NCBI GenBank assembly: GCA_964106915.2
Contig: OZ066923.1
Direction: 5' to 3' (one strand)
Source: Podarcis gaigeae
Lineage: Eukaryota
DNA length: 64,000 bases
How positions within the stretch are numbered: position 1 is the first letter of the stretch; each line of letters starts with the position of its first letter. The position numbers and the translations under genes are program-made. A model generated the notes under the pieces. It was given only the letters and a program-made list of their open reading frames with translations, did not search any database and was not told the origin of the DNA. This document shows positions 1,787 to 57,431 of the stretch, piece after piece.

Positions 1787-4549
1787 ATAGACGTGCTTTA
1801 ATGTGAACAAATTTATTAAGTCTCCCCAGGCCAAGAGAAACATTGGCTTGAGGTGAAAACGGAGCAGCATGCAGCCATTTGCTCATTTGCTAAGCTAAAG
1901 TGTACTAAAACATTTCTGAGCATGTCAGCCACTTACGGATACGTAAGGATAATTCTAGCCCTTTAAAATTCTAACACTCAGAATGGGGATGTATTTATCT
2001 GAATTCTGCCCAGCTATATAGTGAAGGACACCGCTATAATTCCCGTTCTAATGATAACGACATAAATATGAGTGGCTTATCAAAAGCCAGTGGGTTGCTT
2101 GACGAAGCTGGCATTTGAATCCAGCCAAAGCAAAGTGCTTCTAAGTCACTTTTATGTCGTCGACACATGTTAAAACATGTCTTTAACTCTTCCATTTACT
2201 TCGCTTTCGACAGACCTGCACTCATGGTTCATGAATTCAATTCCCCCAAAAATGTACTAGAATATAGAAATGCCCATTAGACAAGGATTTAGCTAGGAAG
2301 GGGTTCCCACATGCCACCACAGTATGAAAACAGAAGCAATGTCTATTATAGTATTTCAAAGCAATGCTAATTCAATAAGGAGAAGACGCAAAAGAGTGGC
2401 ACTCTGGCCTCAAAGGAAAATAGGAAGTCCTGCAGCTGGTCAATCCCAAATGGCCCAACAAAGCAGTAGTGTGCAGTGAATTTTTTTGTAGGGGAACAGT
2501 CAGGGCTGCAGCTTGCAAGGGTGATTTGGGGCTATATAGTTGTGACGTTGCAATGTTGTGCATGTGAGCATTGTGCCTCCTTTCCTAAGCCAGGCAGAAG
2601 CTTCCCAAGCTTTGGGAAGGAGGCTCCAGGGGAACATTTAAGGGACTAGTCTAGTCCCCCTAGTCCATTGACCACACTCCACTGCCAACAAACTACCAGC
2701 GTTGAAAGGCTACAAAACAGTAGCTGATCTATTTCCAAACTAATTGAAGGTTCAGTGTTCTCAGCTGTGTGGCTCCTTCCAACGTGGCCCAAATATCTCT
2801 GAGGACGGGATCCTTGCCTCTGACTCATGCTGCATCCTAAGTGAATGCCCAGTCTTCTGATTTACTAAAGCTTCTCCTAGTGACTATCCTTGAGCCAGAC
2901 CTTTTACCAGGGAAACTGAGCTTAATTTGGGACATCAATAGCACCCCTAGGCTGTTGTGGAGTTACATGGAGCCCAGAAGAGGATGGTGAAAGGCAGAAA
3001 TTTCCAAACACATTAGTGAGTCGGCTGCAGTGTGTAGGCATGTTGCGTGAACATTCCCCGCACTCCTACCAAAGATGGAAAGGGGTTAGTTTAACCTCCA
3101 GTTTGCTAGTAAAACTGAATTATGATGCATGTCTAAAAGTGTGTCACTGACATGAAAAGTTTGGAACACTCTGGACTTGTTATTTCCTAAAGGCCTGAAG
3201 TTTTAGCCTGCTAATTGAAGCATTTTTTTTTTTAAGTACTTCATGTAATGGAAAGATGCATCTGTATTAAATGTAGGGAAGGAAATGAGAATAGAGTCTG
3301 TTTTGAATGACAGAATTAATTGTGACTATTTTTTAAGAAGGGGAAAAAAAGGCATCACCTATACTGGCAAAAGTGACATATCAGAATGCTACCTGCATAA
3401 ATATTTCTCAGGGCCTTTAATTGCATCTCCCATCCACAGAATCCAGTGTTCTCAACATGCTTTCCTTATTTATAAGAGGTTCTTTATATTTAATATCTGT
3501 ACTACCAACTCAGGGATACAGTTAGGGAACTCATTGGAAGATACAGATAAAATATCTGACGCCACAGCTGAGCAAGGTCACCTTCATATCCTTGTGACTA
3601 AGCATCGCTCGGCCTCATCGACCCTGCAGCCACTTGAGTTCAGTGTGTTAAGTCAGGCAAGGTTCAGGGTTTTATTTAAACAAGATTGGCTAAGCTATGC
3701 TATGATAAGAAATAGTAATTGTTGCTTACCAGGGGGCGAGGGGGGAATAATACTTTAACAAAAAAATCTGTGGTCTGGATATGCAGTTGTTGTGCTCTGC
3801 TCTGTTTTAACTCACAGAAAGATTGTTTTTTTAATGTAACCAAGAAGATGCATGAACGTTTCAAAACCTCTGCTGCAAAACTATATACTGTACATTAACA
3901 AAAGAAGCTATGTGATTTGGGTGAACTTTTAAGGAAATGAACAATCTTTATGGCAGACAATCCTCAAGTCTCAGTGTTGAAAAGGAAGAATGATATCAGA
4001 TGCTCAAGGAATAATAGGGTTTTCTCTTTATAAAGAAGGAGAAAGAAAACATCAAATAAACATCAAATAGAAGAGTTAAGAGAGAGAGAAGATTTTGTGT
4101 TTGTGTCAAAGAATAGCAAGTCATGAGTCGAACACGTCCAGTTCTTTTAAATCCATGGAATTATTAAAATCAAATCCATCCTTATTGCATAGTAACCAAC
4201 TGTAATATTTAATATATATGATGAACCAGATTCACAAGGATACCATGTGATATAATACATGGATGTCACATTTGAATCTGTCATAGGGAAATATTCCATT
4301 TAAGATTATCAGATGATGCATTTAGATGACATTAATTCTGTCTGATTCAAGCTGTTTGAAATGCTGGAATTGGATAGCAGTCTACAAGGACCTACAGAAA
4401 TCATACAATTGCCTCAACTTCAGAACTCTGGTGAAAGATTTTGCTCCTGCTTCAGAGCTAACATGCCTAGAGCCATGTCATGGTGGAAGGGCTTTACAAC
4501 AGCCTGTGTTGCACATGTTGTGTATGCAGTATTTGTGTACATAAAGTTC

Positions 4550-10122: not shown

Positions 10123-11394
10123 TTGGACACTGACTAGCAGCTCTTTTTCAGGGTTTCAAGCATCCTACCTGGAGTTTGGGGGGAAATTAACCTTCTGCAT
10201 TAAAAGTAGATGCTTTGCCACTAAGCTACGGGCTGCCCTCTGGTGAGGTGCCACTTTACACTGGCACCAGGAGTTCTGTGTTGCATTCCATGTTCTGCTG
10301 TCACTCCTTCAGAGGCACCAATGTAGCTAAAAACACAAAGCTCACTCCGTTCTCCAAAGATATGCAAACACATAATGCTTCCATTGTAATACATGCACCC
10401 ACCTCAGCACAAACTCTTTAGCTTACGTGTTCCAGCTACTCCAGAGGTGGTGTTGTTGTGGGGTTTTTTGCCTTGCACATTTCCTCACCCCACCTCTGCA
10501 GAACAAATGTAGTCCTTGTTTTATTGTATCATTCTTCTTCAGTCACAGCAGCGACTTACAGTACAAGGCTGCAGCTTTTCAAAATAACAGAGGAAGCAAC
10601 TCAAGAGTTTCTTTCTAAAATGCACTTGAGTGACGGTATTAACTTCTGGGGAGGAAACACCACAGGAAGTCTGTCTGGTTTTATTTTGTTGATTTGTAAG
10701 GACATCCATGTGTGTGTTAAATTTATATTTATTTTTTGCTTTTTACAGTGGCCCTATTCCTCTTGGGAGTGCAGGGGAAGCTTCCTCCTTTCTTCATAGC
10801 AATCCTGTGATAGAGGATAGGGCAGACACTGACTATCCCACGGCTGAAGACAATCGGAGCTGGAGTTCAACAATATCTGGTATACCTTCTCTGCTCCTGC
10901 GCTAACCAGTGTCCCAAACTGCCTCTCTTACGAAGCAGATGTGTGGGCAGAACAAAGTCTGAGCAATGGCACCGGGCCACAATTTACACATGCAACCAGA
11001 CATTGATTCTCTTTGCCTGGAGGTCACGGTGGTAAGTCTGGACCACTGGGCACAGACTTAAGACCCCACAGTCCCTTCCTTTCCCCAAAAAAAGATGGTA
11101 CCACAATGGACAACAGTGCTTGTGGGGGGGGGGGGAGACAAAAAAGGAAAGCATTTTAAAGAGTGGGCATGGATCTCCCTCAAGTGTCTCTGAGCTCTCT
11201 GTGAGACCAGAGGTACTCTGAAAACTGAAGAGGGCTAGATGACATGTTTGGAGCTTTGCTCTGTCTGACCAAAGTACACCCATTGTAAAAAAGTTATATA
11301 GAAAGGTATTGTGGTGATGACTGACACTGCCTAGTAAGGGAGGAGGGGGGAAGGGAGGGAATGGCTGACCAGAATGAGCAGGGGAAAGACTTTA

Positions 11395-11620
11395 CAGTGG
11401 TACCTCGGGTTAAGTACTTAATTTGTTTCACAGGTCCGTACTTAATCTGAAACTGTTCTTAACCTGAAGCAGCACTTTAGCTAATGGGGCCTCCTGCTGC
11501 TGCTGCGCCATTGGAGCACAATTTTTGTTCTCATCCTGAAGTAAAGTTCTTAACCCGCAGTAATATTTCTGGGTTAGCGGAGTCTCTAACCTGAAGCGTA
11601 TGTAACCTGAGGTACCACTG
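11395..11620. mobile_element. Tc1/mariner (Tigger/pogo-like) MITE, family A
   Basis: Terminal inverted repeat (TIR) CAGTGGTACCTC(G/A)GGTTA, TA TSD; seven copies in the window. Confidence 0.9.
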
Positions 11621-13075
11621 TACTTTTGATATCCTTTGTTCAAAACCCCTGTCAGGTATGATGCAGGCAGCCTGCCAACAATCCTCATAAGAGGTTTGAG
11701 AAGAAAGATTATAGAGACAGAAAAAAGTCGCTTCCCCTCAGCCTGGTACAGAAGCATGACATCAAAGGCCAAATTGGGAGGCCTAGCTGACCTTATGAGG
11801 CCCCTAGGCCAGATGTTCCCAATGCTGCCTTGCTATGTATTGTGGGGAAAGGTGAATCCCTATTCCCATCATTTAAAAGAGACTCAGCAGCAGGTGGCTG
11901 TGTAAATCAGCACATAGTGCTGACTATACCCATGAATGAATCTATGCTATGGAAAGGAAGACATCAGAAGATAAATGACAACCTGCCTGGCTGGAGAAAG
12001 CCATGTGTATTGTAAGATGCTGGATCCAGAGGAAGGAAATAGTGCTTTCTGCATTATTATTTTACTACTGTTGAAAGCATAACGTTTGTTAACTTGATAT
12101 CCTAAAAATGGAACACAGCTGCCTTCTCTTGATGGCATACTGAGATATCCTTCTGAGATTGTTTGCTCTTATTTTAAGCCTAATCTTTCATACGTGAAGT
12201 TTCTTTCACTGTGAAGAGTTAGCTGCTCTCCTCAGTCTACAAGAGAGGCCTTTCAGAATTACTTTTCGAAAGCCGAGATGGCTCAGTAGTGTGCCTCTCT
12301 TACCTCCTGGCATCTACTGCCTGTGCCATAAGTGAAGCTCCTGAATTGCCTTTAAAGCTTAGGTGTACCACTGGGCAACGCTGTCATTGCTCTAGTAAAG
12401 TACTGTTCGAGTCTATAGTTTGATTAAATGGGAAATGACTCTGCTGTCTTCCAACAGCATCTGCCCATTGTTTGAATTAGTCTAACTTAAAATTGGGAGC
12501 TGATTATATTTGCCCACATTAACTTGTCTCAAGCTGGCACTATTTTTTGTCAGATCTGCCTAGCCAGATTTGCTCAGGAAAAAAACTGGGCCCTTGAGCC
12601 CCAAATTATGTACACTAGCTTGCCATTTTCATTTCATGCCTCTACTGCACAAAGTTATTCAGCTACCCTTCCCAACCAGATGTTACGTACATGCTGCTCA
12701 TGTAAATCATCCCCTGCCAAGTTCGAAGGGGGATGACGTGGGATCGTTTGGACCAAATGCAATGCTTAAATGGGAATGGCATTTGATGCTTCAGGAAGGA
12801 GAGAGAAGAACCAGCAGGCAAGCTTTTGTTTTGCTCTGCAAGCCATTCATCTTAGTAACTTTCGCAGAGAAACAGAAGAGATGGAAAGATGCATCAAGCA
12901 CATTGCTTGACTGGGAGCAAGCCTTTTGGACTTAATTCAGGGTGAACATATATAGGACTGCACTGTACAACTGCAATCCTATACACATGGGAGTAAGTCC
13001 CATGGAACAAAACGGGGCTTGTTTATATAATGTTTAGGATCGCATTGTGAATAATAGTATCTCCATTGGTGAATC

Positions 13076-17305: not shown

Positions 17306-17655
17306 GGGACGGGGGTGGCGCTGTGGTTAAACCACAGAGCCTAGGACTTGCCGATCAGAAGGTCGGCGGGTCTAATCCCCGCAACGGGGTGAGCTCCCAT
17401 TACTCGGTCCCTGCTCCTGCCAACCTAGCAGTTCGAAAGCACGTCAAAGTGCAAGTAGATAAATAGGTACCACTCCAGTGGGAAGGTAAACGGCGTTTCC
17501 GTGCGCTGCTCTGGTTCACCAGAAGCTGCTTAGTCATGCTGGCCAGATGACCCGGAAGCTGTACGCCGGCTCCCTCGGCCAATAAAGCGAGATGAGCGCC
17601 GCAACCCCAGAGTCGGCCACAACTGGACCTAATGGTCAGGGCTCCCTTTACCTTT
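17306..17655 (+). mobile_element. Sauria SINE, full length
   Basis: Head, body and ACCTTT tail; TSD TATAT(G/A)ACTTTG at 17294-17305 and 17656-17667. Confidence 0.93.
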
Positions 17656-24909: not shown

Positions 24910-25260
24910 AAAGGTAAAGGGACCCCTGACGGCTAGGTCCAGTCATGGACGACTCTGGGGTTGCGGCGCTCATCTCACTTTATTGGCTGAGGGAGCCGGC
25001 GTACAGCTTCCAGGTCATGTGGCCAGCATGACTAAGCTGCTTTGGCAAACCAGAGCAGTGCACAGAAACGCCGTTTACCTTCCCGCTGGAGCTGTACCTA
25101 TTTATCTACTTGCACTTTGGCGTGCTTTCGAACTGCTAGGTCGGCAGAAGCAGGGACCGAGAAACAGGAGCTCACCCCGTCGCGGGGATTCAAACTGTCA
25201 ACCTTCTGATTGGCAAGCCCTAGGCTCTGTGGTTTAGACCACAGCGCCACCTGCATCCCG
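24910..25260 (-). mobile_element. Sauria SINE, full length
   Basis: AAAGGTAAAGGG tail and CAGCGCCACCTGCATCCC head on the plus strand; TSD ATTAGTA(C/G)AGT at 24899-24909 and 25266-25276. Confidence 0.92.
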
Positions 25261-26513: not shown

Positions 26514-27230
26514 AGAGAGGCTTCTTGGTGGTTGCACACCAGTTATGGAATATCTCCTCCCCAAAAAAGGTTTTAAAGGTAAAGGGACCTCTGACCGTTA
26601 GGTCCAGTCGTGGGGTTGCGGTGCTCATCTCGCTTTATTGGCTGAGGGAGCCAACGTACAGCTGCCGGGTCATGTGGCCAGCATGACTAAGCCGCTTCTG
26701 GTGAAACCAGAGCAGCGTACGGAAATGCTGTTTACCTTCCCGCCGGAGCGGTACCTATTTATCTGCTTGCACTTTGACGTGCTTTCAAACTGCTAGGTTG
26801 ACAGAAGCTGGGACCGAGCAATGGGAGCTCACCCTGTCGCAGGGATTCGAACCGCCAACCTTCTGATTAGCAAGTCCTAGGCTCTGTAGTTTAACCCACA
26901 GCACCACCCATATCCCTTCAAAAGGTTTTACTAGCACCTATATTATGTTATTTTCAAGGCCAAGTGAATTTAACTTTTTTTTTCTTCAACAAGGCCTTTT
27001 AGTTTCAGTTGGATTTTTTTAAAAAAATGTCAAGGCATGAAATGCTTTCTCTTGCTGGTTTTTCCTGCTAATTTTATGCTAGTCTGTTTTTATTCTGCTT
27101 CTTAGTAACATTTTATAGTGGATGTTGAGTTTTTGCATTGATATGGCTTTATGGATGATATTATATTGCTTATATTTCTGTAAACTGCCCAGAGGATTTG
27201 GCTCAATGGGTGGTCTAGAAATGAAATAAA
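26514..27230 (+). mobile_element. Old L2 3' fragment interrupted by a Sauria SINE
   Basis: RGFLVVAHQLWNI motif before the SINE; AAGGCCTTTTAG and TGTAAACTGCCCAGAG 3' UTR after it. Confidence 0.65.
26576..26919 (-). mobile_element. Sauria SINE
   Basis: Homology to the other copies; 11-bp TSD AAAAGGTTTTA on both sides. Confidence 0.92.
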
Positions 27231-31377: not shown

Positions 31378-32898
31378 ACAATAGTCATTTACACTACCTA
31401 ACATGTACATGCAAAGGTATGCTGGGCAAAGGCGACAGCAGGTTTTTTGCGACAGGATCTGCGTGTGCAAAAGCATAGCTTCTGAAAATATTGAAGCCTG
31501 CTTGGTGTGGCTCTGGCTCTCCTTGGGATCTGTGTATCAGAAGAGAGAAGAGATCAATCCATGGCATGTATGCTGCAGTTGAGAGATCAGGGTCTCTTGG
31601 TGACTTCAAGACCCCCACTTATTTGGGGCCCAGCTGGAAGATTTAAGACATCCAGTAGTGACCGAATCCATTTCTGAGCATAGAAATGTCATGGAAAATC
31701 TTTCCCCTGAACTTGGGTGGTGAGTGCAACAGAGGCTTGCAAACCTGGGTGAAGAAAGCAACAACCTTGCAACAGAAACTAAAGGAGTGTCTTGATTGAG
31801 AAAGAATACCTTTCTCAGTCTCTCATTATTTTTTTCAAAAAAGAGGGGGAAAAGGATGCAACTGTCATTGAACAAAGAACTTTTTAATGAATTATTTGCA
31901 TAGCTCCAACACATACAGCTGAAGATTTATTAGCTTAGATAACAGCGGCATGCCAGGATTAAGTAATAATAAGACAGGGGTATCAGAATTATTTAATAGC
32001 TGCATGCTTGACTGTGTTAAGTAGGACAAAGGTTAAAGCTTAAAAGGTAGAGAACATTTTATTTTTCCAGTGTTATGTGATCATAAGATAAATTTCTTTA
32101 GGGCATCCAGTATAATTATTATGGTTATAAAAGCACAGAATTTTCAGGGTGGAGAGAACTATATAAGGAAATCATGTCAGAAATAACACAAAATCACAGC
32201 ATAGAGCTCAGCGGGCTCCTCTGTTTACAACAATGGATGCATTCCTTAACAGTGTTCATTCGTGGAAGTCATTCCCAAGCCCTATTTATGCAAAGTCCTG
32301 CTTACACCTATTAGATACTTAACCTATGCTCCATATTAAACAAGAGATACCAGGGCTGTTATTCCAGCATAATGACCCTGAATTTAACAGGAATCCAGAC
32401 AGCAAGCCACCACATATTATCAAAACGACACGCCACGGGCCTCTGCAACAGACCTTTAACCCACCCACCCCCTACCCTGAAAGTACTGCAAACCAGTGAA
32501 CTGCAAGCTGGACAACATCCCCAGATACTGCCCATAAGTTTGCACCACAGAGGGCTAGGTATTTTGAGAGGTAAGGCAAAAGGTGTCAGGATCTGCTGTT
32601 TAGGCTACAGTTCGAGTCAAAACCAATTCAAAACAATATGCAGCATCTCTTGTCAACCAAAAAGCTCATCATGTTACCCAGACATTGACTGTGTCCTGGC
32701 TGAAGTTTTAGATGACAGGCGAAAGTCAATAAGAAGGGAGTTTCGGTCAACCAATCAGAAAGAATTCAATGCAGGCCACAGTGTAAATCCTGAACTTACA
32801 GGTGGGTGAGAAAGAAAACAGAAAGACAGACAGACAGAGATAGTCATGAAACAGAAATCTTGGAATATATGTATCTTGTTCAGAGTGTCTTCTATATA

Positions 32899-33140
32899 CA
32901 GTGGTACCTCGGGTTACATACGCTTCAGGTTACATACGCTTCAGGTTACAGACTCCGCTAACCCAGAAATATTACCTTGGGTTAAGAACTTTGCTTCAGG
33001 ATAAGAACAGAAATCATGCTCCAGGGGCACAGCGGCAGCAGGAGGCCCCATTAGCTAAAGTGGTGCTTCAGGTTAAGAACAGTTTCAGGTTAAGAACGGA
33101 CCTCCGGAATGAATTAAGTACTTAACCTGAGGTGCCACTG
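32899..33140. mobile_element. Tc1/mariner MITE, family A
   Basis: TIR CAGTGGTACCTC, TA TSD. Confidence 0.9.
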
Positions 33141-33994
33141 TATTGATATCTCTTTTTAGTGGTGTCTCCAATGACCTGCTGCTAAGTGGAATCAGCTACT
33201 GCGTGTGACCTACTGCAGCTCAGCACTACAAGTCTTCTGAATGCTAGACTTTGAACATTCAATCAATGAACTGTTTCCGTTCTTGATAAAACAAAAAGGT
33301 CCCACAAATGAACACAGCAGCAGATCTTAAATTTTGTTTTTGTTTTTTAGAAGACAAAAAACTTGTAAATTGTTTTTGCGCAATTACTTTCAAAAACTGC
33401 AAGCAGCAGGCACCATTTTAAAAGAAGCTTTCCCCTTCTATGACATACATCAGGGGATACTTCTTCAAAGCTAGTGCCTGATATGATGTGCCCCTACATC
33501 ATCTAAAAACAAAGAAAGCCCTTTTCTACGTCAGATTTATTGTTTTATTCAGATGAAAAATTGGGCAGATAAAACAGATCAAGCAACTGACTGAATTAAA
33601 TTTATGGAATTAATCCAACTAAGGGGACAATGGAAAAACCAACAATAACCGAGAGAGAGAGCGCAAAAAATTAAATTCCTGCACAAAGGCAACATAATGA
33701 ACATTTTAAACACCAAAACCTGGATGCATAACAAGTTATTTGCCTTGACCTATGGCTGAAAAGATCATAAAGAAGTGATAGATATGTTTATCATGGAAGG
33801 CTCTTTTTGATGCTAGGGGTTGGTTTGTTTGTCTTCATCTAACTGTTTGTGCTTTTGTGTTTGATTGCCAAACTGTGGTTTAACAATCTCTTATCTAGCC
33901 TTTATCCACTATGCTACTACACTAGCCAGGCGTTTGTCAGAATTGACTCCAAGTGAGAACCATATGAAGTCAGCTATTTGAAAATTTTCTCTTT

Positions 33995-36539: not shown

Positions 36540-37118
36540 CATACCCTCCAACATATCTCTGATGAAAATAGGGACGTCCCGTTCCACAATGATAATTTTA
36601 CTATTTATACCCAGCTTACTGGTTGCCCAACCACTCTGGGCAGCTTTCAACATATAGTGGTACCTTAGGTTACAGACGCTTCAGGTTACAGATGCTTCAG
36701 GTTACAGACTCCGCTAACCCAGAAATAGTACCTCGGTTAAAAAGCTTTGCTTCAGGATGAGAACAGAAGTCATGCTCCGGCAGCGCGGCAGGAGGCCCCA
36801 TTAGCTAAAGTGGTGCTTCAGGTTAAGAACAGTTTCAGGTTAAGAACAGACCTCCAGAACGAATTAAGTTCTTAACCTGAGGTACCACTGTATATAAAAA
36901 CATAATAAAACATTATTATTATTTTTTAAAAACCCTCCCCTATACAGGATTGCCTTCGGACAGCTTGGGGGTCGGATAACTCCATACTCTCCAACATTTC
37001 CCAATGAAAATAGGGACAGCCTAAGGAAAAGTGAGACATTCCAGGATCAAATCATAAACTGAGATGGCTTCTCTAAATCAGGGACGTCCCTGGAAAATAG
37101 GGACACTTGCGCGGTCTG
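36540..37118. mobile_element. Composite non-autonomous DNA element (hAT-like termini) containing an L2 tail and a family-A MITE
   Basis: CATACCCTCCAA left end, CACTTGCGCGGTCTG right end, repeated AATAGGGAC subterminal motifs, flanking GAAATA direct repeat. Confidence 0.6.
36655..36890. mobile_element. Tc1/mariner MITE, family A (nested)
   Basis: TIR (C/T)AGTGGTACCT, TA TSD. Confidence 0.9.
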
Positions 37119-37935: not shown

Positions 37936-38241
37936 TAGGACTTGCCAATCAGAAGGTCGGCAGTTCGAATCCCCGCGACGGGGTGAGCTCCCGTTGCTCA
38001 GTCCTTGCTCCTGCCAACCTAGCAGTTCGAAAGCACGTCAAAGTGTAAGTAGATAAATAGGTACCGCTCTGGCGGGAAGGTAAACGGCGTTTCCGTGTGC
38101 TGCTCTGGTTCACCAGAAGCAGCTTAGTCATGCTGGCCACATGACCCAGAAGCTCCCTCAGCCAGTAAAGCGAGATGAGCGCTGCAACCCCAGAGTCGGC
38201 CACGACTGGACCTAATGGTCAGGGGTCCCTTTACCTTTACC
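37936..38241 (+). mobile_element. Sauria SINE, 5'-truncated
   Basis: Starts at TAGGACTTGCC; B-box, body and ACCTTT tail present. Confidence 0.9.
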
Positions 38242-40020: not shown

Positions 40021-40582
40021 ATTGGCCAGCCAATAGCATGGGAAGCTTTTCTCGCCCCTGCCCATAAGTTGCCCACAGCTGTACAAGGCGGCAACTGCTG
40101 CCGCTGTCAATAATGATATTTCTGTTTTCTATTACTATTCCAAAACATACAAATATATCAGTAACCCTCAAAACCTATGGGTATCTTCTTCTTCTCCTCC
40201 TCTTCTTCCTCCTCCCCCCAGACTATTAGAACTTACAATATGAAGATAAATTTGTACCTAGAAATTACGCTTGTAAGCAACAGTTCAAATAGCAGCTTCT
40301 AATTTCTCAAGCAGGTTCAATGGGGAAACAATTCATTTCTTGTTCACTGTGATTCCTGACATCACTTGAACAACACCGAAAGAACGGCCAAAAGTACATG
40401 CTGTTTTACCAGTCATACCAGACTGGAACTCAGCTACAGAGTTCAGCTTGGTGCTGTCAGACTAACTAAACATCCCCATAAATCTTTCAATTAGATAAGT
40501 ACTAAAAAATGGTCAAAACATTGTTTTTAAAAAACAAAAATGGTGGACATAAAGCACAAAGGGCAAATGAAGTAGGAAAATA

Positions 40583-40808
40583 CAGTGGTACCTCGGGTTA
40601 CATATGCTTCAGGTTACAGACTTCACTAACCCAGAAATAGTACCTCAGATTAAGAACTTTGCTTCAGGATGAGAACAGAAATCGCATGGTGGCAGCGCGG
40701 CGGCAGCAGGAGGCCCCATTAGCTAAAATGGTGCTTCAGGTTAAGAACAGTCTCAGGTTAAGAACGGACCTCCGGAACAAATTAAGTACTTAACCAGAGG
40801 TACCACTG
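40583..40808. mobile_element. Tc1/mariner MITE, family A
   Basis: TIR CAGTGGTACCTC, TA TSD. Confidence 0.9.
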
Positions 40809-43191
40809 TACACACAAAAGCAGTGCACCAAAAGATAATTAATGGAGGCCAAATTATTATGAAGTTTTAAGATGTTTGATGCAACATACTCTGTCCTTTC
40901 TGCTACCTACATGCTGCGCAACAGAGGGTGGGTGATCATGGCTAGCTTCTTGGAAATGCTCAAGTATGCTGAACCATTGACCAAATGAGGTTCAGTCAGA
41001 TGCATTCAGGTCAGGCAATTCTATTCCTAAAGTGCAGTACCCAGCATGGTGACCTTTTTTGGGTGGCAGTAATAAGAAAAGGTCAGGAATGCATACTTGG
41101 TTGGTAACCTGCAGCAGCATTTTTAGCTAGATAAATAGGAAAGAGTTTGCAGGGAAACAGAGCCTTTATGAAGAGTGATTTTTGTCTAAACTGCAAAAAC
41201 AATTGGCTGGATGTGGTGACCTGAAAGGTTAACAAGGCAGCTCAACAAGAACAACCCAAGGGATCCAATTCACACAACAGGATAGGGGGGTGGGAGCAGA
41301 CAGAGAAGGTCTAATATTATTCACATTCCTCTTGCCAGTATTAACCTCGTTGAAGAAAGAAGGCAATGTCAGACTTAGGACCAATATCAAAAACCAGACC
41401 AAGGTTTTAGAACTAAAAGATTTGTTCCCAATTTCAAGCAGGATGCCTACAGGTGCACAAAGCATTGTGCGCTTATCAATTTCTTTAGACCTTTCACTGA
41501 GATTGATGCTGTTTGATAATTCCAAATTCCACTAAACGTTAGTGTTCAGATTTAGAAGTTGGTGTCTTCCCCTCCTTTGGGCTCCTATGTTGTCTGGCAG
41601 AAAATCGTTGGACATAAACATTACTCTTTCTGCTTCAAAGATTTTTTGAAACGAGAACACGGCCATAGTTAACAGTAAACCATAGGTAACATGGGGGGGA
41701 GCTTTTAAAAATAATCACAATAATCTCAGAACAGAAACTTTGGACCACAATGTGCCCTCGCCCCAAAGTTTATGCGAGACATTTGAATCTTGCATTGTTG
41801 ACTGCCTGCCTGCCAGCACTTGACATTAAAAGAAGTTTCTAAGCGGCCGCTAAGGTCTTATGCAATTCATGTTGCTATAAACAGTCACCCGAAATAAATT
41901 TAAAATCTACCATTGTGGAAAAGCAGATTTTACTCTCTCGATCTGCCTAATGCTTTGTTGTGCATGTTTCTGTCCATCCAATTTGCATGGCACTTTATCA
42001 CGAGGCAATATTTTCACGAGCTAAACTGTTAAGAGCCCCCTGCTGCAGAAAATCTCTGGAGTAGAAGTACTTTGCGGTCAAGCGTGCAATGACAACAGCT
42101 GAGGACAATATGCAGTCCTCTAACACTTTTATTTCCCCAGCTCACAATCCTGATCTTCGTCCACTTTCCTGAACAAACCACAAAGACTTACTCTCAAGCA
42201 AGCATGCACGGGTTCAAACTGCATGCCTCACCATACAGCTCCATTCCTTTCTAACCAACAACTCAGAAGAAAAACGGTCTTCAGCACACTGAGTTCAATG
42301 AAATCGAGCACTCTTTTGAGTACTAAAGCAACACGTTCTTGCCTGCATCTTCACTTATGTGCAGAGCTTTTTACAGCCATGGCACGAAAGTGAACTTCTA
42401 ACTGCACCTGCAGGGCACGAGATCAGGCTGATGGTTTAGGGAATATTAAGGAGCTTTCTGAGCACACCTGCGCTTTGCACCTGGGTTTGCGCAGGAAGCA
42501 GAGCTCATAGTTATTCCCGACAAGTTCATTGTCATCCCTACCTAATGCGCACATATTACACCTCGTATGTATTTTTGAACCTTATCATCATCGGTATTCC
42601 TTGCTTCTGTACTATACAAGAAATTGCAGTTGCATATTGAATTGTAACTGGAAGTCTGGCACATACGGATGAGTGTTGCTTGCTTTGTTGTGTAGAAACT
42701 TAACTTTGAGATACAAGAAGGCCATCATGCAGTTTGTCTGCTCTTTGTGGGATGTAGCAGCTGCTCCCAAGAAGACAGCCAAGCAGTAAATCTATTTGAC
42801 CAACCACCCTGTACACCATTGCACACACCACTGCCTCGCTGCTTGGCCTCATGCTTCTATTGAGAAAACACACTGCACCACTGAGTTTGATGTGTGAGCG
42901 CCATCCCCTTTGCTATCCCAGCTGTTCTTGAATGATAGCATGAAAGAGCTTTGCCTCCTGAGTGTCAACACTTTGACCTTACGTGTTCCAAGTAACATAC
43001 AGGCTTCTTCAAGTGCCAAACAAGCCTCCTATGCTAAGAATCATTTTAGCAGGCTCTGCTGCTTCGTTAAGCCACAACAGTTACCTGCACTTCAGACTGC
43101 ACCAGAAAATTCAGGGATAGGGACATACATTTTATTTCTGTAGCATCAGAACCACATAGTTTCTTTTGTCAGTCCTCCACTGACTAACCAC

Positions 43192-43873
43192 TAGGGATGG
43201 AGAAGTTCGATTTTGTTTGCATTTTAACAAAAAACTACTTATTCTACATCTCTCAAGCTGATATGCAAACCAAATCCCAGCTATGCTTTGAAATTCGCAC
43301 TTCTTTGAAATTTGCGATGTAGTTCTCCAACCAAACACTTGTGCACAAAAATGAATATATTAGGAAGGAAAGCACATAGGAATGCATGTACAGTGGTACC
43401 TCGGGTTAAGAACTTAATTCGTTCCGGAGGTCAGTTCTTAACCCAAAACTGTTCTTAACCAGAGGTACCACTTTAGCTAATGGGGCCTCCTGCTGTTGCC
43501 GCGCCGCAGGAGCACGATTTCTGTTCTCATCCTGAAGCAAAAGTCTTAATCCGAGGTACTATTTCTGGGTTAGCGGAGTCTGTAACCTGAAGCGTATGTA
43601 ACCTGAAGCATCTGTAACCCGAGGTACTACTGTATTAGTGAAAATAACCATTCGAAATGCATTGCGTTAGCGGAAATTGCTTGCAAAAATTGGCATATTG
43701 GTCAAAGCTGCGCACAAAAAAAATGTGTTTATAAGGAGAAATTCAAACTGAAATGCAGACAAAAATTCATGATTTTTTAAAAAGCAAATTACCATGGAAT
43801 TCTGAATAACTGAATAGTTGGGTGGAGACTGAAAAAGTTAGAGAACTGAAATTGACAGATTTATTCATTTTCG
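43192..43873. mobile_element. Old non-autonomous hAT-like element hosting a family-A MITE
   Basis: TAGGGATGG left end; 8-bp flanks CTAACCAC/CTAAGCAC; its right part is homologous in reverse to 62707-62900. Confidence 0.65.
43391..43632. mobile_element. Tc1/mariner MITE, family A (nested)
   Basis: TIR CAGTGGTACCTCGGGTTA, TA TSD. Confidence 0.9.
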
Positions 43874-44198: not shown

Positions 44199-46194
44199 AT
44201 AGAATTCAGGTCAGAACCATAGCTTCTGGTGAGGCAGATGTATTTCTAGAGCAAGCCCAGGAACTGCTTTAGTTAGTGTAGTTCCTTTTACTTAACGAAA
44301 ATATATGGGAGGTGGACATAAAGCAGTGGGGGGGGGTCCATATGCCATAGGGCAGTAAACTGTCACTCCCTCTGTACACTGGAGGCCTTCTAGCTGTTGG
44401 AATGAAGTCTACGATAGCCCTATCTGTGCTTATCGATTTTGAATTGCTAAAGCCACTCTAAACGACGTAGTTAGCCGGCTATAATGCTGCATTCCCCTCT
44501 CGGCCTAATCTTGGTTTGCCTTCAAATACGCATACATTTCTTATCTTCTTCTTTCTTATCCCTAAACTAAATATTTAGTAGCCCTCTGTAAGACTCCTCA
44601 CCACCAATTCTCAATTTTGAGTTAGGAAAGGAGCCATCACTGGGGACACTAATGATTTCTTTGTCTTTGACACACATTCCTCTTCCTCTGGAAAATGAGA
44701 AGAAAAAGAGGAAAGGGGCAGAGAGGAAAGATGAACGTAATATAAGGAGATGGTGGAGGAGATACAAGACAGACAAGAGGATGGGATAAGCAATGGCCCC
44801 CTCATAGCTGCAAATGCTCATTTCAAAGTCTACACTCAGGTATAGTTTGCCTAGCCGCTTAACCCAACATAAGCCTGCTATGGCCTACTATAAAATAGGA
44901 TGAGCTTCACGGGAAAGCCCCTATGATACAAAGCTTATCTTTCAGGAACAGAGATAATAAAGTCAGGAGAAGGAAAAGACAACACCGTACAATTGCCGTT
45001 GCAGAACAATAAAGCAATGGTGAGAGGACTGACTCACAAACAGAAGCACAAATGTTACTTTTCAAAATGTTGATTCTCAGCTAGATACTTGCTCTCATGT
45101 ACACATAATAGCCATTTGTGGCACATTGAGAGTCTAAAGCAAAAAGGAAAAACTGTTTCCCTCCCATATATAAACGCTTTTCTATATGATCCCCTGGAAG
45201 TGATTCTTACTTGCCTCAATGGTTGGCCAAGTAGCCTTCTATTATAAGCAGTTTATCTCATCTCATTACAATTCCTACAATTCCACTGATATTACATATT
45301 TGATCTCTTCCTCCTGGTGTGCCCACCAGTACATGCTTGTGCATGTAAATGGGAGTCTTAAAAAGAGATATTAAAACATAGTCACTCAGAGGTAAATATC
45401 ACTGACTTCAATGGAATTTACTTTCACATACATGTTGTTAGGACTGAAATCCTAGTGTCCAAAACACACACATGGCTGTGCTTTATCAATATCACGCACC
45501 AGCTATTCTCTACGATCTACAAAATTTGAAACTACACCCAAAACTAAGAGCTAAAATTTGACTGGATCAATGCTGCTCAACACAACACATACCTTCTCCT
45601 TCAGTTCCGGAATGAGAACTTGCAGGAACACATGCAAACATAATGGAACAGGTAAAATGTGAGAATGCCCACCCCCACACCATTCTTACTTTAACCTTCC
45701 GTTAGTACCTTAGGCAACTGTCAGCATTTGGCTTCTTGCTAAAGCTCCGTTTCTTGTGAGCTTACAACTGTAGCCTGCGAGTTTTCAAACTGTTGGGCAG
45801 AGAGCCCAAGTGCACTTGCATAAGAGTTTAGGTGCAGCCTTTGGCGACAACCCAAAAGGTCTTTTGCTTGAGAGAACTATATCATTTTAGACTCCTGGTT
45901 ATTTCCCTGGGACTGTTGCGTCCCAGGACACAACATGGATTAGAAAAAAAGATTGTACATGAATAGCACAGCACTGGCACTGAAAGCTCAGATTCTTTTC
46001 TTTTTTAAGGGCAAGGTAGACAGCAATTCACTAACAGAAAAGATTTGTCATTTATGGACATGATGACTTATGTATGTAGGTGTGGGTTTTTTGTGTCTTT
46101 ATAAATTGATTTTTTTAAAAAAAATGTATAAAGAAGCAAAGTTACTGCTTAAGATTCGTCTAACACAAATAGCATGCTAAATAACCAATTTGTA

Positions 46195-46439
46195 CAGGGG
46201 TACCTCAGGTTAAGTACTTAATTCGTTCCAGAGGTCCGTACTTAACCTGAAACTGTTCTTAACCTGAAGCACCACTTTAGCTAATGGGGCCTCCTCCTCC
46301 TGCTGCTGTGCTGCCGGAGCACGACTTCTGTTCTCATCCTGAAGCAAAGTTCTTAACCTGAAGCACTATTTCTGGGTTAGTGGAGTCTGTAACCTGAAGC
46401 GTATGTAACCTGAAGTGTATGTAACCCGAGGTACCACTG
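46195..46439. mobile_element. Tc1/mariner MITE, family A
   Basis: TIR CAG(G/T)GGTACCTC, TA TSD. Confidence 0.9.
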
Positions 46440-47486
46440 TATATTAATCACTGTGAAGCAAAAGTCTGCAATGGCACATTCTTCTCCCCACATTTGAGTG
46501 CCTCTCTGCAAGTCTGTTTTGAAATGCGGAGCTCAGAAAACCACAGGAAGCTCCAGGTGTGTGGACATCTATGCTGAACCCATGATGCTCTACCTATTGT
46601 TGCACTGTAGTAGTAGCAGTAGCAGGGGGCCCAAAATTGCACTGGCTGTGGAGGCCAGTGCATACATGGTTGTAGGACTACAGAACTTGACTCCCCACCC
46701 CCAACAAGCTTTTCTTGTCATTTTCTCTGCTGAAATGCATGACACATGTGACAAGTCTCATTTTAAGGGTGTTTTCTATTTATTACTGTAATCATATGAA
46801 GCCTTCATGGATCACTGGACCATCTAGCCTAGTATGAGCTACTTTGTCTGGTGACAAGGGTCACAGCCAGAGTTCTTTCACAAGTTTGCCAAATGGAGTT
46901 ATTTAACAAGAGATGCCCTTGATTGTTAACTTGAGGGCTGCCATTCTTCTGTACGAAACAAAGTAACTGCAACAAATTCAGATTTTTCTTTTAGAAGATC
47001 AGCCGACCTTTACCAAACAAAAAGCCTAGATCACCTGTGTCTCTCCAGCGTTAATTATATCTTCCTTTTGTATTTTGCTGTGCATGGTTATGGTGCATTG
47101 TACGGTTTTATTTCTGATAAAAGTTCAATGGATGTCAGGACCATTCAGCCCTTGAGGGCACCATCTTGACCTGTGGTGCCCAAGGAATCAGGTGAGATTC
47201 ATCAGCAGGTTTCACTAGAGGGTCTACTACAGGCAGGGCCAGACCTACTATTAGACAGTGTGAGGAAGCTGCCTCAGGAGGCAAATGCTGGGATGGTGCA
47301 ACAAGATGTTAAGAGGAAAGAGCTCCATGTGATCTGCCTTGTGCCCCTAAGCTAGCCTGTTGCTTCAGGTTCAGCAAAGGATGCTGAAGATGCAACAGCC
47401 AATCTGGCTCACCTTGGTACTAAGAATGGGAATGACTTCTTGTCCTCTGCCTCAAGCAGCAAGATGACTTGGGACTCTTCTGACTA

Positions 47487-49445: not shown

Positions 49446-49833
49446 GGGTGTATGGTGGTTCGGATGGGCATCTGTCACTTGGGTCTACGGGGATGAGTGG
49501 CATTGCGCTCTCTCTCCACGGGGTACATCTCTGGAGGTCACTGATCGGACGGGGGCAGCCAGGGAGGCGAGCTCCGACTGCGCTCCCCATCCATCCGTCC
49601 CTAAGGCCGGTGGTGGCCAAGCCCTTCTCATCCACGGGGGCGCGGGGGGTGGGACACCGTGTTCTGCTTGCAACTCCGCGCTGCTCCTTTGGCGGCGGAC
49701 GCCGTTCATAGTGTGGGTCTCCCGCCCACCCCGCACCCCTCGCGCCTGCTCTGCCCGCTTCCCCCGTGTGTGATGCATCATCCACAGTGTGAGCTCGGAC
49801 TTGGGCGCCTCGCATCCCAAAGCCAACGCGATC

Positions 49834-49864
49834 GCGGCGGCGGCGGCGGCGGCAGCAGCAGCAG
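49834..49864. repeat. (GCG)6(GCA)4 trinucleotide tract
   Basis: Direct inspection. Confidence 0.85.
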
Positions 49865-50079
49865 ACCAGGCGCTCTTCTCGTTGCTTAAGCGACACCATT
49901 CCGACACAGTTAGCAACACACTCGGGCGGCAGAAGCAGGGACATTCAAACACGAAGCGGCGGAGACAATGGGGCTGGAACAGACGGCGGCCCCCTTCTGC
50001 CTAGAAACCCGGCCGCCCTGCCCATCTATTTGGTTAATTAAAAAAAAAAGATGAACTGGATGGCTCCGTTTTACGTTAC

Positions 50080-50173
50080 CTGGCTTGGTCTCCCTCTCTG
50101 TGTGTGTCTAGTTTGGGTGGGCTGGTCCTAATCTTCCAGCCGCCGCCGCCGCCGGTTCCTGCTCGCTGCCACT
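50080..50173 (-). other. Putative non-coding first exon of an unidentified minus-strand gene; 5' boundary uncertain and may extend upstream
   Basis: CCAG|GTAACG donor at 50080/50079 inside the CpG island; AT-rich TATA-like tract at 50189-50201, about 26 nt upstream of CCAGT; no ATG in this segment. Confidence 0.55.
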
Positions 50174-50796
50174 GGCTGAATGGGGCGATATTTATTTATT
50201 TCCCCATGACGTGGCCTGCAGAGGCCGCCGCCGCCGCGAAAGAAAAGAGGCGGCACGAAAGACGCGGGGCCTTTTGTGCGCCGCGGCCGCCTCGGGCTGG
50301 AGTCGCTCGGAGGCCGCGCGCGGAAGAAAGAGGAGGAGGCGCGCCGCCGTCCTCTCCGCCACCTGCCCCTGCCTGCTTTTTGTTGCCGCTCCGAGGGGGA
50401 TTGGTGTCAAGGGCAGCCGGGGAGGCTCGACCAGGAGCCGCTGCCACCGCCGCCGCCCTCGCCGAGTGGGGCGGAGGCTGCCGGGCGGCGGGGAGGCGCC
50501 TGCTGCCTGAGCCGCAACATCTCCAAGGCTCCCGGCGGCGGGAGAGGAGAAGAGGCGAGGCGAGGACGCGGCGGGGAAGGCAGGGCCCGGCGGCACGCGA
50601 GTGGCCGAGCCATGAGCGCGCCTAAGGACGCTGAGCTGCGCCCTGAAGGGTTTGGGGGTGTTGGAGGGGGACACAAATTGCCCCATAACTAGATCAGGAT
50701 CGTAGGGACAGGATGCGGGGGGCAACGCACTGGATCCTCGGCCACGCATCCAAGCACTGGTGCTAACTTGAATAAAATACAGTGGTACCTCGGGTT

Positions 50797-50970
50797 GTCT
50801 TTGTCCATGGAGTTTTCTTGGCAGGGATACTGGAGTGGCTTGCCGGTTCCTGCTCAGGTGGATCACGTTTGGTCAAAACTCTCCACTATGACCTGTCCAT
50901 CTTGGGTGGCCCTGCGGCATACCTCATACCTTCTCTGAGTTATTCAAGCAAGGCAGTGATCCATGAAGGG
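50797..50970 (-). mobile_element. BovB (RTE) 5' UTR segment, inverted relative to the adjacent 3' segment
   Basis: Minus strand reads ATGGATCACTGCCTTG...GCAGGGCCACCCAAGATGGACAGGTCATAGTGGAGAG...GGCAAGCCACTCCAGTATCCCTGCCAAGAAAACTCCATGG, the recalled BovB 5' end (Bov-A left-half homology). Confidence 0.8.
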
Positions 50971-51192
50971 GCCACCTCTTGAGAAGAGAAGATTCCCTGG
51001 AAAAGACCCTGATGTTGTGAAAGATTGGGGACACAAGGAGAAGGGGACGACAGAGGACGAGATGGTTTGACAGTGTTCTCGAAGCTACAAACATGAGTCT
51101 GACCAAACTGTGGGAGGCTGTGGAAGACAGGAGTGCCTGGCGTGCTCTGGTCCATGCTGTCATGAAGAGTCGGACACAACTAAACAACAACA
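50971..51192 (+). mobile_element. BovB (RTE) 3' end with (CAA)n tail
   Basis: GHLLRREDSLEKTLML*KIGDTRRRGRQRTRWFDSVLEATNMSLTKLWEAVEDRSAWRALVH; TSD ACCTCGGGTT at 50787-50796 and 51193-51202. Confidence 0.92.
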
Positions 51193-51427
51193 ACCTCGGG
51201 TTATGCTTTTGGTTACAGACTCCATAACCCAGAAATAGTACCTCAGGTTAAGAACTTTGCTTCAGGATGAGAACAGAAATCAAGCAGCGGCAGCGGGAGG
51301 CCCCTTTAGCTAAAGTGGTGTCTCAGGTTAAGAACAGTTTCAAGTTAAGAACGGACCTCTAGAACGAATTAAGTTCTTAACCCGAGGTACCACTGTATTG
51401 GGGTGGGACAGGGTTTGCAGGTAAGCC

Positions 51428-56831: not shown

Positions 56832-57175
56832 GGGATGCGGGTGGTGCTGTGGGTTAAACCACAGAGCCTAGGACTTGCCAATCAGAAGGTCGGCAGTTCG
56901 AATCCCCGCAACAGGGTGAGCTCCCGTTGCTCGGTCCCTGCTCCTGCCAACCTAGCAGTTCAAAAGCACGTCAAAGTGCAGGTAGAGAAATAGGTACCAC
57001 TCTGGCAGAAAGGTAAACGGCGTTTCTGTGCGCTGCTCTGGTTCGCCAGAAGCGGCTTAGTCATGCTGGCCACATGACCCAGAAGCTGTACGCCGGCTCC
57101 CTCGGCCAGTAAAGCGAGATGAGTGCCGCAACCCCAGAGTCGGTCACGACTGGAACTAATGGTCAGGGGTCCCTT
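56832..57175 (+). mobile_element. Sauria SINE, full length
   Basis: 12-bp TSD TATGAAGTGTAT at 56819-56830 and 57176-57187. Confidence 0.93.
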
Positions 57176-57431
57176 TATGAAGTGTATCATAAACTTTTGC
57201 TCATGCACAATGCCAAGGCAAGTGAAGAGGCTGCTTCTGACCCTGGATGCTGGAAAGTAGGGAGGCTTTTGAAATCCTTGCTCCCTGAAATTTGGCTGGT
57301 GTCCAATGTAATGGCATTCAGTCACCAGCTCAAAACATGGATCTTTATCCAGGCTATTGAGAATGGTTGCTGGTGGTTAGTAATTGCTGAAATTTTGCTT
57401 TTTTTGTGTTTCCCCCCTGATTTTATAAACA

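Follow-up and report, generated by a model that had tools for sequence, protein, structure and literature searches.

Inverted BovB insertions in the Podarcis gaigeae genome share an outer break at the 5'-UTR/ORF border and may be twin-primed at a fixed second site

Results and discussion

The window analysed here (the whole stretch of 64,000 nucleotides from Podarcis gaigeae) contains a copy of BovB, an RTE-clade LINE, whose inverted 5' end is joined to its 3' end inside one target site duplication (TSD). On balance, we interpret it as a single BovB insertion twin-primed at a fixed second entry site of the reverse transcriptase (RT), located at the border of the 5' UTR and the ORF (nt ~185-213) of the same RNA. 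Inversions, collinear deletions and solo copies of the 5' UTR are three product classes with a common break, and the larger finding, in which we have a little more confidence than doubt, is that a fixed second priming site links the inversions with Bov-A-like deletions and solo 5'-UTR copies.

The insertion in the window

The insert (positions 50797-51192; Table 1) consists of nt 191→1 in the antisense orientation, followed by nt ~2993-3217 in the sense orientation. All nt numbers refer to L080, an intact genomic copy of 3.22 kb with an open frame of 1036 codons. Alignment to this copy bore out the opposite orientations of the two halves proposed in the initial annotation, with positions 50794-50971 corresponding to antisense nt 194→1 (88% identity) and positions 50970-51194 to sense nt 2991-3217 (87% identity). 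The 5' end of the element indeed faces the inner junction, where 2 nt (GG) are common to both pieces, and ~2.8 kb of the element lie between the two breaks. The outer break, previously placed ~175 nt from the 5' end, is moved by the alignment to nt 191-194, because this copy lacks ~15 nt inside the 5' UTR. The AAC expected to follow ...GGACAAAGAC in the sense sequence is present in the reference, and provides a 3-nt microhomology with the GTT that ends the TSD.

Both halves are bracketed by a single 10-bp TSD, ACCTCGGGTT, exactly as had been claimed, and this duplication is confirmed by paralogous copies of the host MITE, which represent empty sites: in six more MITE copies in the window the target word or its one-base variant occurs once, at the same position. 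Based on its TA flanks, we take the MITE to be of the Tc1/mariner type. At this locus there is no T run upstream of the T/A step at the nick. Among contigs from 4 public runs (3 organisms), none crosses the whole locus, so the junction stands without independent read confirmation; joints between position 50971 and other 3' positions were found in contigs of two organisms, with a short side of 21-24 nt, which makes them a weak hint at most.

The surroundings of the insertion include a CpG island (50200-50651; CpG o/e ~0.9-1.0 across 49500-50500) and a possible first coding exon with an ATG at 50612 (MSAPKDAELRPEG) and a GT at 50650-50651, in which case the MITE and BovB would lie ~130 bp into intron 1. 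A family of ~350-bp repeats, presumably Sauria SINE, is represented in the window by five copies of 85-91% similarity (17306-17655, 24910-25259, 26575-26917, 37936-38240 and 56832-57177).

Table 1. Coordinates of the inverted BovB insertion, its host MITE and related copies in the window
Feature	Position	Strand	Remarks
Host MITE	50780-51395	.	~250 bp without the insert; terminal inverted repeats; split by BovB in the left terminal repeat
TA flanks of the MITE	50778-50779 and 51396-51397
Left TSD copy	50787-50796	+	preceded by T (T/A nick signature of Bov-B); the GTT end also fits the antisense element
Putative second priming hotspot	50794-50810	-	reference nt ~178-194; first ATG at 50808-50806, then tail-like GAC-AAA-GAC-AAC
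BovB 5' UTR and first ORF codons, inverted	50797-50971	-	nt 191→1 of L080; internal loss of ~15 nt
11-nt shared word, 5' copy	50867-50877	-	reference nt 110-120; ~80 nt ahead of the hotspot
Inner junction	50970-50971	.	element 5' end joins nt ~2991-2993; 2-nt microhomology GG
BovB 3' end	50972-51192	+	reference nt ~2993-3217, sense
11-nt shared word, 3' copy	51098-51108	+	reference nt 3119-3129; one substitution in the window copy
(CAA)n tail	51185-51193	+	terminates the BovB 3' piece
Right TSD copy	51193-51202	+	duplicate of 50787-50796
Further MITE copies	11393-11626, 32890-33145, 36646-36895, 40577-40812, 43386-43636, 46191-46450		similarity 82-91%; terminal word repeated internally

Identity of the element

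The element is ~3.2 kb long and has one ORF with an AP endonuclease and an RT, as is typical of BovB and the RTE clade; the two domains (Pfam Exo_endo_phos and RVT_1) were identified in the copy L079, in the same frame as in L080. A (CAA)n 3' tail, a Tn-TA target signature and TSDs of ~10-12 bp are further characteristics of this group; the window copy ends in such a tail, and the signature is seen class-wide. We have named it BovB on the assumption that the matching (CAA)n tail and T/A signature suffice for this assignment. The Tn-TA target signature of Bov-B has been reported in the accessible part of a 2026 study of reptilian Bov-B (PMC13295347). The 1036-codon frame is open in 11 of the 12 full-length copies tested (L066, L079, L080, L082, L084, L087, L092, L095, L102, L107 and L114), at ~99% identity to L080, which points to a young family that is probably still active.

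A recurrent outer break

A search of the same genome with the insert as a query, in which 40 of 4224 candidates were scored, revealed at least 8 further loci of the same layout, on 7 contigs, among the candidates scored. Each of the 8 has its own flanks and its own inner junction, which answers in the negative the question raised in the initial annotation, whether this exact junction recurs as an amplified subfamily. Because such a search is biased towards its query, copies were sampled again by a 26-mer at nt 137-162, which has 1448 exact matches in the genome, and the first 90 of these loci (chosen by motif, not by architecture, and all situated in the first 87 Mb of contig C1) were classified. 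These 5'-UTR-bearing copies comprise 30 inverted copies, 24 full-length copies, 23 collinear internal deletions, 10 solo or 3'-truncated copies and 3 copies extending past the fetched DNA.

In 28 of the 30 inverted copies the outer break falls at nt 188-213 (186-209 with strict placing), the two off-site copies having it at nt 405 and nt 1489, and in 21 of the 30 the antisense piece extends to nt 19 or closer to the 5' end. The inner 3' breaks are scattered, with sense pieces beginning anywhere from nt 445 to nt 3177. The share of breaks expected at nt 188-213 is ~7% (p~4e-30), as estimated from the first-strand lengths of 91 3'-anchored copies (a set without L176), whose 3' piece has a median length of 432 nt. 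Breaks at the same place were found in 11 of the 23 collinear 5'+3' deletions (nt 184-205, p~2e-7; the second piece of one of them, L050, is just 35 nt long) and in 5 of the 10 solo or 3'-truncated copies (nt 193-206, with L039 perhaps being a complex inversion). Taking all classes together, 44 of the 90 copies stop at the hotspot, and on-site inversions (28/90) are about as frequent as full-length copies (24/90) among the 5'-UTR-bearing copies. Since many independent copies are broken within the same ~25 bases, the element likely has a built-in second RT start site.

The break is also visible in genome-wide counts of exact 25-mers, which amount to 1613 before the site (nt 166-190) and 802 after it (nt 215-239), and then climb in the 3' direction to 1243 (nt 1521-1545), 3073 (nt 2419-2443) and 9105 (a 27-mer near the 3' end). 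The match rates in sampled copies (48/70 for the word before the site and 33/43 after it, for a word offset by one base) do not account for the drop from 1613 to 802, and plain 5' truncation could only increase the word counts 3'-ward. The 91 3'-anchored copies include 2 with an inverted UTR and 1 collinear 5'+3' join (two of these three loci overlap the 90-locus sample) and no ORF-internal inversion, and 60 mid-ORF loci include 2 ordinary inversions with adjacent breaks (L232 and L278). By scaling, the number of fixed-site inversions is estimated at ~200 (2/91 x 9105) to 450 (28/90 x 1448), counting exact-match copies alone.

Several other copies differ in detail. The inversions off the hotspot are either L1-like (L232 and L278) or have a long inverted 5' part (L089 and L115), and all four share 96-99% identity with the young reference. 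The 5' pieces of six copies, inverted (L043, L061, L072, L110 and L111) or collinear (L098), end at nt 124-131, possibly due to a stall of the RT immediately 3' of the 11-nt shared word described below; no inverted copy ends at nt 68-123, and the pattern is partly shaped by the anchor at nt 137. In L035, L037, L039, L092 and L109 the first 10-40 nt are re-copied in tandem at the 5' end or at the inner junction, which hints at template jumps occurring repeatedly at the 5' end of the RNA.

Target sites and junctions

An exact TSD of 7-13 bp flanks 22 of the 30 sampled inversions, the other 8 having no exact TSD of at least 7 bp. Oriented by the 3' piece, 16 of these 22 TSDs begin with A and 18 are preceded by T, with an excess of T at positions -12/-11. 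The same nick pattern is seen in the 19 full-length copies that have a TSD, in agreement with the signature given for Bov-B in the available text of PMC13295347. As the T/A signature is that of full-length copies, the first nick and the priming on the tail must have been normal. The proposal that BovB is capable of twin priming is thereby supported, but the geometry of the products is unlike that of L1.

Since junction and flanks differ from copy to copy, the inverted copies represent neither an amplified subfamily nor pairs of insertions. Two independent insertions at the window locus are ruled out by the single TSD and the empty MITE sites, and an amplified chimeric subfamily by the differences between all examined junctions and flanks. 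A pre-existing 5'+3' SINE was also considered as the template and dismissed; a genome-wide search with one pattern found 4 exact short collinear joins, none of them alike. For an origin other than priming (misassembly, two head-to-head insertions, a later DNA inversion or an amplified chimeric subfamily) one could cite the missing read or contig across the window locus, but the TSD with its empty paralogous sites, the distinct junctions and flanks of the 8 further, near-identical layouts on 7 contigs, the wide range of 3' starts in the 30 inverted copies and the fact that the four shortest collinear joins of the genome are all distinct leave it a nearly negligible probability, and for the class as a whole the recurrence refutes it.

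At the outer junction, a strict count detected microhomology of at least 1 nt in 11 of 22 copies (p=0.42), at least 2 nt in 7 (p=0.06) and at least 3 nt in 4 (p=0.03); a looser count yielded 9 of 21 (p=0.004), and 1-10 extra or mismatched bases were found in 9 of 22 copies. The pairing of the terminal GTT of the TSD to the RNA, suggested in the initial annotation, would fit the 3-nt microhomology at the window locus, but the enrichment over chance across the class is weak, so that base-pairing seems not to choose the site, which seems to be picked by position.

The weak microhomology and the extra or mismatched bases would also be consistent with a free double-stranded cDNA of nt 1-195 that was made elsewhere and filled, by end joining in either direction, the gap at the 5' side of a truncated insertion, and both orientations are indeed seen. 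However, inverted copies (28) outnumber collinear ones (11), the TSD lengths are as in normal insertions and a fixed start of the cDNA would still be required, which makes this scenario very improbable.

The hotspot and its likeness to the 3' end

The hotspot is situated 5-30 nt downstream of the first ATG, within the GAC-AAA-GAC-AAC stretch that resembles the tail of the element. Copies ending in an extended GAC(AAC)n were represented by 9 matches, eight of them solo 5' pieces terminating at nt ~195. In six of the 9 the TSD outscores each of the 72 mismatched controls (two of the six lie in low-complexity DNA), and five of the 9 have 3-4 AAC units vs one in the template, the search pattern itself requiring two. 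Judging from their sequences, these solos look like first-nick insertions that may have been primed on the 5' site and extended by slippage on the tail.

The tailed solos fit equally well with an RNA ending at nt ~195. A separate 5' RNA of ~195-210 nt, generated by premature termination, cleavage or as a decay intermediate, could have been a template of its own, giving inversions if it was primed from the second nick (in trans or within one RNP) and solos if it was primed from the first. Such a template would explain why solos end at nt ~195 with extra AAC units and TSDs, and two-RNA twin priming has a precedent in snRNAs and L1 (PMC4476161, in the part available). Nevertheless, we regard it as rather unlikely: the breaks are spread over ~25 nt (186-209) instead of sharing one end, and solos are few (5/90) beside 28 inversions and 11 collinear deletions. 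Besides, young and old subfamily markers are never mixed between the halves of inverted copies; as the subfamilies differed in their periods of activity, this concordance tests cis action only weakly. No common TSD flanks the head-to-head pairs of 3' ends (L161, L163 and L246), which accordingly lend no support to two-RNA priming.

The position of the hotspot just past the first ATG would be expected also if L1-type twin priming took place, independently of any specific protein recognition, at the first A/C-rich stretch left single-stranded behind a 5' UTR that is folded or occupied by ribosomes. The U5/L1 twin-primed chimeras described in the accessible sections of PMC4476161 break in one single-stranded loop in four cases of four, and the two adjacent-break inversions among the 60 mid-ORF loci demonstrate that events of the ordinary kind are known in BovB. 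Yet a 3-kb RNA is rich in unpaired stretches and just 2 of the 30 inversions lie elsewhere, priming driven by annealing should leave strong microhomology, and the solos with extra tails would be left unexplained; passive accessibility is therefore a doubtful explanation.

Returning to a site recognized by the protein, the longest word common to the 5' UTR and any of 24 element windows is 11 nt long and starts at nt 110 and nt 3119, and its distance to the GAC-led A/C-rich run is 80 nt in the 5' copy vs 81 nt in the 3' copy. This word, which was found post hoc, is a candidate protein-binding element. The alignment of the whole 5' UTR with the 3' end reached no significance (p~0.10), the predicted fold of the first 300 nt is no more stable than those of shuffled sequences (z=0.54), and no Rfam family, including the 5' HDV-like ribozyme, matched positions 3780-4300 of L079 at E<=5, a variant possibly being absent from Rfam.

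The use of the hotspot is lower in the youngest subfamily (2/8 vs 37/45 rearranged copies, counted by eye, p=0.003), a difference that may stem either from an altered element or from the disappearance of the longer copies among the old ones. A substitution present at nt 207 in young copies might lengthen a small hairpin across the 3' half of the hotspot (nt 198-212); its link to the lower use of the site is speculative.

Proposed mechanism

The mechanism towards which we lean is deduced solely from the DNA products. Initially, the endonuclease would nick the target at T/A, as indicated by the nick signature, and the first strand would begin on the (CAA)n tail, to stall mostly within a few hundred bases, in keeping with the median length of the 3' piece. 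In the second step, a second nick at a distance of 7-13 bp would offer its 3'-OH to protein that sits on the 5' module of this RNA, and nt ~195→1 would be copied from there. Finally, the two cDNAs would be joined via a microhomology of 0-4 nt or a few extra bases into the head-to-head product. A collinear 5'+3' deletion would form if the stalled first strand jumped to the second entry site, and a solo 5'-UTR copy with a (CAA)n tail if that site were used at the first nick. It is likely that the BovB protein treats the second entry site like the 3' end of the element. A more tentative extension, which we would sooner doubt than assert, is that both ends of the RNA carry paralogous RT-docking modules, each with the 11-nt word ~80 nt before a GAC/AAC run, of which the 5' one may hold the protein for the normal second-strand step and may lead to inversions, by reverse transcription of the 5' UTR starting at the second nick, when the first strand stalls.

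Relationship to known systems

In L1 twin priming the internal site is variable and the two breaks usually lie close together. Twin priming has been documented for L1, and microhomology is most frequent at the junctions of 5'-inverted L1 copies, according to the accessible part of PMC2912911. BovB resembles L1 in having one TSD, an antisense 5' piece and a sense 3' piece with an intact tail, and short microhomologies at the junctions. Unlike L1, it is a member of the RTE clade with one ORF, its outer-junction microhomology is weak, and its outer break keeps to the 5'-UTR/ORF border, mostly 2-3 kb from the inner one, so that 28 of 30 inversions have a fixed site far from the start of the sense piece instead of a variable one near it.

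In the literature consulted, 5' inversion is portrayed as nearly specific to L1. In cell culture (human cells), inversions were nearly confined to human L1, with the addition of one Nimb insert (PMC4245944, in the available sections). We found no description of 5' inversions of BovB or other RTE elements in the literature that could be searched, and the novelty is accordingly provisional. In particular, the words invert, inversion and twin are absent from the main text of PMC13295347, the part of PMC6036668 at hand mentions no inversion in the sense of retrotransposition, and the corresponding parts of PMC6007223 and PMC5389967 contain nothing relevant to BovB inversion.

Bipartite 5'+3' derivatives are known only from RTE, Ingi, Vingi and R2, 'for unknown reasons', according to the accessible text of PMC5786205. 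The 11 of 23 collinear deletions that break at the hotspot resemble Bov-A, RTESINE, WALLSI3 and AfroSINE (same source) in the combination of a 5' UTR and a 3' end without the ORF. Unlike in families of the Bov-A/RTESINE type, where copies have one common junction, the examined BovB junctions differ from each other, the joins representing independent single events, and the inverted product is the commoner one.

A precedent is offered by the R2Bm model, as given in the available part of PMC6895275, in which integration involves protein subunits bound to the 5' PBM and the 3' PBM. The BovB RNA would be similar to R2Bm in having binding elements at both ends, for the first-strand and the second-strand steps. 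However, R2 is site-specific, has a restriction-like endonuclease and, in this model, cleaves the second strand after the loss of the 5' RNA (PMC6895275, same part), whereas the 5' RNA of BovB is itself reverse-transcribed and its binding by the protein is putative. The inverted chimeras of U5 snRNA and L1 (PMC4476161, in its accessible portion) are similar to the BovB inversions in that priming at the second nick is focused on one RNA site; those chimeras are rare and involve a foreign RNA in trans, whereas the template in BovB is the 5' end of the element itself, and the copies are estimated to number several hundred.

Conclusions

Here, an RTE LINE is found to invert in an estimated several hundred copies, almost always at one site. 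Since genome annotation cuts such copies into two fragments on opposite strands, counts of 5' ends and of insertions would be inflated. Synthesis of the second strand and formation of the 5' junction in LINEs are termed poorly understood in the accessible part of PMC6895275, and a fixed, mutable RNA site would make this step directly testable in an APE-type LINE. The second entry site also offers a mechanism for the bias of RTE elements toward bipartite 5'+3' derivatives, as noted in the available text of PMC5786205. If the two-module organization of the RNA is true, inversions, bipartite elements of the Bov-A type and solo 5'-UTR copies would all follow from one feature, which would also account for the prolific parentage of SINE bodies by RTE LINEs.
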